From NCBI RefSeq assembly GCF_041886205.1, contig NZ_CP169029.1: a DNA stretch of 64,000 nt; one strand, written 5' to 3'. Positions 56,667 through 58,045 of the stretch are shown here, in pieces. Source of the DNA: Escherichia coli. GTDB lineage: Bacteria > Pseudomonadota > Gammaproteobacteria > Enterobacterales > Enterobacteriaceae. The first letter of the stretch is position 1, and every line of letters starts with the position of its first letter. The position numbers and the translations under genes were made by a program. Under the pieces are notes generated by a model. It was not told the origin of the DNA. It made no database searches and saw only the letters and a program-made list of their open reading frames with translations.

Positions 56667-56690
56667 CGAATTACCATTCAGGGAGGAATA

Positions 56691-57290
56691 ATGGCTGACT
56701 ATTTTGAAATACGTGCTGATTACAATCAGCACACCATCACGGTTTATCAGGCTTACAATGATGCAATCGCTGACGTCGCCGTACGTAACGGGCGATTTGG
56801 CGCACCTTTTTCATTCAACCGCATGACCTGGATTAAACCCTCTTTTATGTGGATGATGGAGCGTAGCAACTGGGGACTGAAAAAAGATCAACAACACATT
56901 CTCGCAATCCGAATCAAACGCACCTTCTTTGATACATTGCTGGAACAAGCGGTGCTAACCACGCCGGAAGCCCATGTGTATCCACATGCAGGCATTTGGG
57001 AAACGTTATTTGCACAAGCAAATGTGTATGTTCAGTGGGATCCCGAACGCAGTATAAATGGTAAAAAACTGGAGCACCGATCATTACAGCTTGGTATTTC
57101 CCGTAACTTGATCAGTCAATTTAACGAAGACGCCATTGTTGCCATTGATGATCTGACTCCGCTGGTGCGAAAGTGTCATAACCTTTTGATAAACGGTAAA
57201 ACAACACAGGCGAAATCCTTCCTGCCGCCAGAAAAAATTTACCCTGTTAGTGCAGCTGCGAGAAAGGCTTTGGGAATGAAAAATTCCTGA
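56691..57290 (+). CDS. Hypothetical protein (199 aa), first gene of the apaH–folA insertion; possibly DUF4291-like
   Basis: ORF track 199 aa; strong GGGAGG Shine-Dalgarno 7 nt before the ATG; low GC (~40-45%); TWIKPSFMWMMERSNWG motif. DUF assignment is from memory only and is low confidence. Confidence 0.8.
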   Translation: MADYFEIRADYNQHTITVYQAYNDAIADVAVRNGRFGAPFSFNRMTWIKPSFMWMMERSNWGLKKDQQHILAIRIKRTFFDTLLEQAVLTTPEAHVYPHAGIWETLFAQANVYVQWDPERSINGKKLEHRSLQLGISRNLISQFNEDAIVAIDDLTPLVRKCHNLLINGKTTQAKSFLPPEKIYPVSAAARKALGMKNS

Positions 57291-57325
57291 GACAAATACG
57301 CGCCTATTAAGCGGAAAATATTTAA

Positions 57326-57775
57326 GTGCGACAAATCAACACCGGGCTTAATACCAGAGAAATTATTCTGGAAATGATTGACGAAGCAGATGCCCCCCCA
57401 TTTGCTGAGCAGCGGACCTGGCATCGCAGGCGAATCGCTTTTCTATGTGATTGCATCAGCGTTGCTGTCGACTACGGCTTCTTCTGTTCTGTTTCTCAGC
57501 AGTCAATAATGAACATAACCAGGATGGCTGAAGATGTATGGATAATAGAAAGTAAAATGACACAACTCATTGATATCTGGCAACAACTTCAGCGGCTTTA
57601 TCCGCCAAACATTATTCCCTGCACCCAGCAGTTACCCGCTAAAGAATTGCTTGAACTGCTACTTTCCAGTCCTGACGATCTTCGAATAGTTGAAATCCCT
57701 GACATCATCGGTGATGTTTTTGATGACCAAACCTGGATTCGATTATTCAAAAAACACTTTGCTGATATTATCTAA
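57326..57775 (+). CDS. Hypothetical protein (149 aa from GTG 57326, or 133 aa from ATG 57374), second gene of the apaH–folA insertion
   Basis: ORF track 149 aa; co-oriented 35 bp after the first ORF; weak RBS at both candidate starts; acidic, Cys-containing, no recognisable motif. Confidence 0.6.
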   Translation: MRQINTGLNTREIILEMIDEADAPPFAEQRTWHRRRIAFLCDCISVAVDYGFFCSVSQQSIMNITRMAEDVWIIESKMTQLIDIWQQLQRLYPPNIIPCTQQLPAKELLELLLSSPDDLRIVEIPDIIGDVFDDQTWIRLFKKHFADII

Positions 57776-58012
57776 CTACGATGTGATGTGTAACAATCCA
57801 AAATACATCGCCAGACGATAGACCAAAAAGAAAGTATTTAGCAGATACTCAACATTCTGACTTCTGTACAGAAATAGCAGAGTTTAAAAACTTAAAACTT
57901 CCGGTACTCATTAGAGAAACATCCAGTTTCTTCTGCAAATTCATTTAATGCCGAGATGGCATCCTCGTTTACTTCAGTCCACTGTAGAGTAGCTTGAGGA
58001 TTTAGACCTACG

Positions 58013-58045
58013 CAGTGAGCGCGACTCACAAAATCGCGCTCACTG
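58013..58045. other. Perfect 11-bp inverted repeat (stem-loop) about 47 bp downstream of the folA stop
   Basis: cagtgagcgcg-actcacaaaat-cgcgctcactg; no U-tract on either side. K-12 has a REP element in the equivalent position (recollection). Confidence 0.6.

Follow-up and report, generated by a model that had tools for sequence, protein, structure and literature searches.

A 5'-truncated gene of a putative orphan immunity family in the apaH-folA hotspot of Escherichia coli

Background

An open reading frame of 149 codons, here called ORF2, lies between apaH and folA in a stretch of 64,000 nucleotides of Escherichia coli DNA, referred to as the window throughout. RefSeq annotates its product as a hypothetical protein. 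A preliminary description, made from the nucleotide sequence, regarded it either as the immunity- or antitoxin-like partner of the gene upstream or, because of its weak start signals, as a gene in decay. The locus raises the question of whether ORF2 is still a gene and, if so, what kind of function its product may have.

Results

The apaH-folA island

The gene order of the window, a segment of the E. coli chromosome, is lptD-surA-pdxA-rsmA-apaG-apaH, followed by a variable island and then by folA-kefC-kefF on the opposite strand. The island is made up of three features, namely a DUF4291 gene, ORF2 and a CcdA remnant, which are listed below with window coordinates.

56667..58091, no strand assigned: variable island of 1.4 kb, filling the apaH-folA intergenic hotspot
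56691..57290, + strand: DUF4291 gene, the "first ORF" of the preliminary description; 199 aa, pI 9.3, strong Shine-Dalgarno (SD) sequence; Pfam PF14124, E 2.2e-68
57291..57325, + strand: spacer of 35 nt, ending in an in-frame TAA; no SD, promoter-like site or + strand terminator
57326..57775, + strand: ORF2; 149 aa, acidic, assigned by sequence comparison to an unnamed family with a zinc ribbon and a helical part, as a member truncated at the N-terminus
57374..57376, + strand: alternative in-frame ATG, with a 133-aa product; kept in all alleles
57773..57793, + strand: TAA stop of the window allele and six codons translated in the other sampled alleles
57892..58071, - strand: remnant of a CcdA-family antitoxin, without ccdB; Pfam CcdA, E 8.8e-8

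The GC content of the island is 0.40-0.45, as compared with 0.53 for the window. Among 5,426 complete E. coli genomes, 536 carry the whole island, and in only three of them is it at least 99% identical to that of the window. The site is empty in K-12-type strains, with a gap of 77 bp in K-12, and is occupied by ccdAB in O157-type strains (O157:H7). It is a plastic site, known for decaying ccd genes (Mine et al. 2009, cited in PMC3184786 and PMC7232551).

For the CcdA remnant, the Pfam match is limited to the C-terminal half (model positions 39-71 of 71), which is the CcdB-binding one. The remnant is 45% identical to residues 12-77 of CcdA-O157, with an internal deletion of 14 aa; among alleles its dN/dS is 0.49, and one of them (L023) carries a nonsense codon. 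No CcdB-like sequence was found in the island, either under or beside ORF2 or with the remnant itself, which may descend from an older ccd module other than ccdO157, in view of the 45% identity. It also contains, near the 3' end of folA, a perfect 12-bp inverted repeat (58013-58024 and 58034-58045, CAGTGAGCGCGA ... TCGCGCTCACTG, 9-nt loop), a possible terminator, REP-like hairpin or operator relic.

The right half of the island was also found mobilised, together with chromosomal folA, in three other places: plasmids pPK5074-69kb (L003) and pSW2367-1 (L004), where it lies between IS1 and IS26 and adjoins blaTEM-1, and a second site of the E. coli EF7-18-58 chromosome (L005), between two IS1 copies. 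The kefC-kefF genes have moved along with folA in L004 and L005, and in L003 the end of IS1 has removed the GTG start of ORF2. Chromosomal folA seems to have been captured in these cases, perhaps in connection with trimethoprim selection. The plasmid matches were rejected as an ancestral mobile module, since they correspond to IS1/IS26-captured chromosomal folA segments. No homologue of ORF2 was found in a phage collection.

Composition and start codon of ORF2

ORF2 occupies positions 57326-57775 of the + strand and opens with a GTG, directly preceded by an in-frame TAA (57323-57325) and separated by 35 nt from the end of the co-oriented upstream ORF (56691-57290); a second in-frame start, the ATG at 57374, would give a product of 133 aa. 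In these respects, as well as in the following ones, the preliminary description proved accurate. The 149-aa product is acidic (pI 4.66, 22 D+E vs 14 K+R) and has several cysteines (positions 41, 43, 54 and 99). It was said to have no recognisable domain, and scans of ORF2 against Pfam, NCBIfam and PADLOC gave no match; scans of ORF2 and its family members against the same collections and PHROGs assigned no family, PHROGs yielding only hits with E 0.03 or weaker. The cysteines do not form a conserved metal site, since C54 (C/W) and C99 (C/Y) are polymorphic among E. coli alleles, and C41 and C43 become K/Q and M, respectively, in distant relatives.

Neither start has a convincing SD, as had been stated: the calculated energy of the anti-SD duplex is -3.5 kcal/mol for the GTG and -2.9 for the ATG, as compared with -11.1 kcal/mol for the upstream DUF4291 gene. 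The background mean is -1.8, and values of -3 or lower are reached at 32% of all positions. A weak SD is not diagnostic for ORF2, since bona fide genes of the neighbourhood are equally weak in this respect (lptD -3.3, surA -3.3, pdxA -1.9, rsmA +0.6, apaH +0.3).

GTG 57326 is favoured, with moderate confidence, as the likelier start, because it is the only in-frame ATG, GTG or TTG between the upstream stop and codon 7, and because codons 7-16, which lie upstream of the ATG, are conserved. In the ten alleles described below, only 2 of the 30 sites of these codons are variable, and the encoded residues are invariant save position 16; they align with the conserved 'GL...' first core helix of full-length relatives. 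Variable sites are 6 of 35 in the spacer and 4 of 15, mostly non-synonymous, in codons 2-6, which represent new junction sequence. Both the TAAGTG junction and ATG 57374 are invariant in the same alleles. PGAP also chooses GTG 57326, turning to the ATG only in L003, where the GTG is lost to IS1. Scans for a promoter, terminator or RNA element specific to ORF2 remained at chance level, with no Rfam match; given that no promoter or terminator separates them, DUF4291 and ORF2 are likely to be co-transcribed.

Coding status and selection

ORF2 is a genuine protein-coding gene. Ten alleles were compared: that of the window, that of E. whittamii and eight more from E. coli, taken from complete genomes and from assembled sequencing runs. 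The frame is intact in all of them, with 74 variable sites, no gap columns and no internal stops. Variable sites are distributed as 19/17/35 over the three codon positions, with an enrichment of the third (chi-square p = 0.016). Mean dN/dS is 0.34 in frame, as compared with 1.22 and 0.73 for the two remaining + strand frames. For the three - strand frames the values are 0.98, 0.41 and 0.66; all three contain stops, by which an overlapping antisense gene was ruled out as the cause of conservation. When the observed differences were placed at random, all alleles were stop-free in 0.3% of the trials, a figure that is anti-conservative because of the ancestry common to the alleles.

These patterns indicate that the frame is translated, either now or throughout the diversification of Escherichia, under a selection clearly weaker than that acting on its neighbour. 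In the same alleles, dN/dS is 0.10 for the DUF4291 gene and 0.08 for the 3' end of apaH, so that the ORF2 value is three times that of the neighbouring DUF4291; the nucleotide diversity of ORF2 (0.051) is also the highest among the coding parts of the island. Amino-acid polymorphism within E. coli clusters at 57587-57640 (codons 88-105), where 11 of the 35 variable codons are found. The segment is indel-rich across the family and might form a surface loop on which diversifying pressure acts.

A family of longer proteins

ORF2 is nearly an orphan: when 1.84 billion cluster representatives were searched in full with HMMER, only five matches were obtained, with phmmer E-values of 4.8e-47 for P0014 and 2.6e-4 for P0016. 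Profile searches added about 30-40 clusters to the family, with E-values down to 1e-97, and a profile search of 100,044 species representatives, based on the alignment of the enterobacterial subset, found only E. whittamii and Superficieibacter electus. The family, absent from Pfam and NCBIfam, is now defined.

Full-length members (189-249 aa) consist of a CxxC-x9-10-CxxC zinc ribbon, a variable linker and a conserved helical core, extending from 'NGLSA' through WH[KR]RR[IV]xF to W[IV]xLxxKHFxxEIxxW, with invariant W, H and F columns. The homology of ORF2 covers the whole helical core, including WH[KR]RR[IV]xF and W[IV]xLxxKHF. The zinc ribbon is found in every full-length member, including those of S. 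electus (218 aa) and of another enterobacterium, L006 (189 aa), and is missing, together with the linker (about 35-70 codons in all), in every Escherichia allele, where the protein starts 5 residues ahead of the conserved 'GL'. At the other end, the Trp of a C-terminal I-x-x-W tail is present in all non-Escherichia full-length members and lost in Escherichia, where proteins terminate with ...IQLRCDV or at an earlier stop. The difference depends on codon 150, which is CAA/CAG in eight sampled alleles, TTA in one and TAA in the window; the longer form has 155 aa, and protein clusters of both 149 and 155 aa exist.

In S. electus, the order is apaH, DUF4291, a 200-bp interval, the 218-aa full-length copy with its own SD, another gene and folA; in L006 it is apaH, the 189-aa full-length copy and folA, without DUF4291. 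The additional gene of S. electus (L022, 8557-9195, - strand) encodes 212 aa, has no NCBIfam match and is a further, different cargo gene of the same hotspot. Since full-length copies occupy the same site in other enterobacteria, the Escherichia ORF2 is a 5'-truncated derivative, and its poor start signals are explained by the truncation. These comparisons place ORF2 in a small, unnamed family of acidic, all-helical proteins, as a member that has lost its N-terminal part. The breakpoints of the deletion are not definable by comparison with S. electus, as the DNA is too diverged. Between enterobacterial genera, identity is 48-56% for ORF2, 87-89% for ApaH and 81% for DUF4291.

Relic or selected gene

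A comparison with homologues had been proposed as a means to recognise a fragment of a longer, disrupted gene, and homologues do show ORF2 to be such a fragment. The suspicion of decay was correct as far as the loss of zinc ribbon, linker and C-terminal Trp is concerned; the remaining frame, on the other hand, is under purifying selection. The main rival to a truncated orphan immunity gene, to which a minor yet appreciable probability is assigned, is that ORF2 no longer functions and is a relic: the rearrangement that brought DUF4291 next to it would have beheaded a full-length gene, and what is left would be drifting towards loss, its frame being still open only through recency or hitch-hiking. 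Besides the missing native start, ribbon, linker and Trp, the window allele has an additional premature stop, which leaves it six codons shorter. Start signals are weak, and both the dN/dS (0.34 vs 0.10 for the neighbour) and the diversity described above fit a relic, as do the decaying ccd genes for which the site is known (Mine et al. 2009, cited as above) and the ccdA remnant carried by the island itself.

Yet all of the sampled polymorphism postdates the truncation, and it is free of stops and indels and biased to third positions; moreover, no break in the frame is found in E. whittamii or among E. coli alleles differing by up to 16% in protein sequence. Apparently truncated database proteins were rejected as evidence of decay: the assembly containing P0007 is error-ridden, with apaH and folA fragmented too, and P0006 ends at a contig edge.

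Relationship to DUF4291

Another explanation is that ORF2 serves as a dedicated antitoxin or immunity protein for the DUF4291 product encoded upstream, the two genes forming a toxin-antitoxin-like module. It is considered quite improbable, in spite of several features that fit it. The genes are co-oriented and 35 nt apart, without a terminator between them; a basic protein (pI 9.3) is paired with an acidic one (pI 4.7), and the DUF4291-ORF2 order is kept in E. coli, E. whittamii and S. electus. The DUF4291 family is predicted to be ADP-ribosyltransferase-like by a bioinformatic survey (PMC12522546). In addition, at one locus (L028, 312-898, E. coli O111:H8 strain 1056-1) DUF4291 is annotated as frameshifted and ORF2 is intact, so that DUF4291 would have been lost first and ORF2 kept, in the order of loss expected of a toxin-antitoxin pair. 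At another locus (L027), DUF4291 carries a 3-nt insertion.

The two families, however, occur apart. Over the 46 loci compared, they are found together only at the apaH-folA site of Escherichia and of S. electus, whose DUF4291 is 81% identical to that of the island. L006 has the ORF2 family at the same site without DUF4291, none of the Bacteroidales loci with ORF2 family members contains DUF4291, and no ORF2-family relative lies within 3 kb of DUF4291 in the records of Flammeovirga, Ralstonia, Proteus and Streptomyces. The three of these records that are annotated have no co-oriented small gene directly downstream of DUF4291, the nearest gene in Flammeovirga being a transcriptional repressor about 220 bp away. 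Being widespread as a stand-alone gene, fungi included (PMC12522546), DUF4291 fits poorly with a toxin that needs a cognate antidote. Even in S. electus the pair is 200 bp apart, with an SD proper to the ORF2 copy. Finally, DUF4291 is strongly conserved (dN/dS 0.10), whereas ORF2 diverges about four times faster. Of the immunity/antitoxin-like partner initially proposed, the immunity-type kind is retained, in view of the polyimmunity arrays that contain distant members, and the upstream ORF is dropped as the partner.

Distant relatives in Bacteroidales arrays

Distant relatives of ORF2, 22-30% identical, come from Dysgonomonas and from Bacteroidales-type metagenome contigs, and sit in long runs of co-oriented small genes. 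Four array groups were informative (L011-15, L016, L017-20 and L035-38); L039-42 are short contigs and uninformative. In all four, the neighbours include Imm5, Imm12, Imm17, Imm43, Imm44, Imm-NTF2, SMI1_KNR4/SUKH, PoNi, DMP19 and Ank genes. In two of the four groups (L017-20 and L035-38) the run is headed by a XerC/D- or integron-integrase-like recombinase (E about 1e-47 to 1e-64), which was found in L017-L020, L035 and L038. The GC content of the arrays is 33-37%, vs 41-50% for the recombinase.

The same two groups show a repeated intergenic A(A/G)CCATTA motif. The exact sequence AACCATTA is found in 17 of 19 spacers of L017 and in 9 of 13 of L019, and AGCCATTA in 4 of 12 spacers of L035. An imperfect hairpin and, after it, A(A/G)CCATTA recur in spacers of L017, L019 and L035, about 20-30 nt before the next start codon. 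The element is attC-like and consistent with an integron-style capture of cassettes.

Published rAID-1 clusters are defined by a 5' XerD-like recombinase, for which the threshold is 44% identity to a B. fragilis reference, at least two co-oriented genes of 100-300 codons, a GC content of at most 41% and a repeated intergenic motif; validated orphan immunity genes are among their cassettes (Ross et al., bioRxiv 10.1101/471110; PMC12247911). The features described above for the Bacteroidales arrays with ORF2 relatives match this definition.

Structure predictions

AlphaFold2 (AF2) gave an unusable model for ORF2 itself (6-sequence alignment, pLDDT 44) and a good one for a full-length relative, 56% identical (19-sequence alignment, pLDDT 89, pTM 0.86). 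The latter shows a small beta ribbon followed by ten helices; ORF2 corresponds to its residues 42-183, and would retain about seven to eight helices.

A Foldseek search of AFDB with this model retrieved members of the family from E. coli O26 and Bacteroides uniformis and, it would seem, from Salmonella, with Imm5-like and SMI1/KNR4 proteins recurring among the weak matches. The Salmonella proteins, A0A718RIX2 (S. Typhimurium SL1344, 244 aa, E 1e-6) and A0A6C8GD57 (S. Infantis, 279 aa, E 1e-5), are about 20% identical to the family model and were missed by sequence searches; they may be further members of the family. Against PDB, Foldseek found nothing with E < 0.4, and no PDB chain matched the ORF2 family by single-sequence or profile search. 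Pfam, including Imm5 (PF14423), had no match for 19 family members, and an hhalign comparison of the family with an Imm5 protein gave a probability of 0.2%. The predicted fold offers a weak lead towards an immunity role.

Discussion

The reading preferred here, held with somewhat more belief than doubt, is that ORF2 belongs to a new, unnamed family of orphan immunity-type genes and, although truncated, is still subject to a relaxed purifying selection. An immunity-type, toxin-binding role is the best-supported function, in view of the rAID-like polyimmunity arrays in which distant members are found. The fast divergence of ORF2 between genera (48-56% identity) also fits immunity-type proteins. 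In none of the loci examined does a toxin gene adjoin a family member, so that the role is assigned by guilt by association.

According to this reading, a protein of the ORF2 family would act as an orphan immunity protein in the cytoplasm, where it would bind and block an incoming interbacterial toxin domain. In the Escherichia lineage, the zinc ribbon and linker, together with the start and SD of the gene, would have been lost by a deletion or rearrangement beside the DUF4291 gene. Translation of the 149-155 codons that are left most likely begins at GTG 57326, on the transcript of DUF4291 (or of the apaH operon). Initiation may be weak, or it may be coupled to the end of DUF4291 translation, 35 nt upstream, and the gene would be kept under relaxed purifying selection. 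The E. coli product, without zinc ribbon and C-terminal Trp and with a dN/dS threefold that of its neighbour, could also be inactive.

A wider proposal, regarded as unlikely, is that the family, combining a zinc ribbon and an SsdAI-like helical domain, is a new class of interbacterial immunity proteins, common to Bacteroidales rAID arrays and Enterobacteriaceae, of which about 10% of E. coli keep a truncated, protective copy at apaH-folA against a toxin of other gut bacteria. If so, the truncated ORF2 would be an enterobacterial counterpart of acquired interbacterial defence. Should the truncated copy still protect, the zinc ribbon would be dispensable for neutralisation, and the family would exemplify interbacterial defence genes shared across gut phyla; should it not, ORF2 would be a dated example of gene decay at a hotspot. 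A testable identity is in this way proposed for a hypothetical protein present in about a tenth of E. coli genomes, many O111 and O26-type STEC included, and the folA-apaH toxin-antitoxin hotspot would also hold immunity-type cargo in several enterobacterial genera. An interesting feature is the link between Bacteroidales rAID arrays and the enterobacterial hotspot.

Comparison with known systems

ccdO157 (CcdA/CcdB) shares with ORF2 the folA-apaH hotspot, and a C-terminal CcdA remnant adjoins ORF2 in the island. ORF2, however, has no similarity to either CcdA or CcdB and lies on the strand opposite to the ccdA remnant, in an island without ccdB.

Among helical proteins, those of the DUF416/YjaG-like type (PDB 3F7C, 2Q9R) have no sequence relationship to ORF2. 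DUF416 has no known function, so that a match to it says nothing on mechanism. SsdAI (PDB 7JTU, chain B), the immunity protein of the T6SS single-stranded DNA deaminase toxin SsdA, differs from the ORF2 family in that identity is only 7%; no Imm5 Pfam match or profile-profile signal was obtained, and the Foldseek search of PDB missed it. SsdAI also has no zinc ribbon, and no deaminase gene adjoins any ORF2 family member. The Imm5 family is said to have been associated, in work by Zhang et al. of 2012, with DYW-type deaminase and CdiA-CT toxins.

The closest comparison is with rAID-1 clusters. The E. coli ORF2 differs from them in being a single copy at apaH-folA, without recombinase, cassette motif, array or zinc ribbon: no 5' XerD-like tyrosine recombinase is present in the island of the window, the GC content of ORF2 is 0.43, DUF4291 is its only co-oriented neighbour in the island, and A(A/G)CCATTA is not found on the + strand of the island. 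The family, moreover, belongs to no named Imm family, and none of its members has been matched to a toxin. Its likeness to rAID-1 lies in the ORF2 relatives themselves, which are small, acidic and fast-evolving, and occur as cassettes with a recombinase, low GC content, a repeated motif and Imm/SUKH neighbours; through them, the ORF2 family is linked to the orphan-immunity arrays of gut Bacteroidales.
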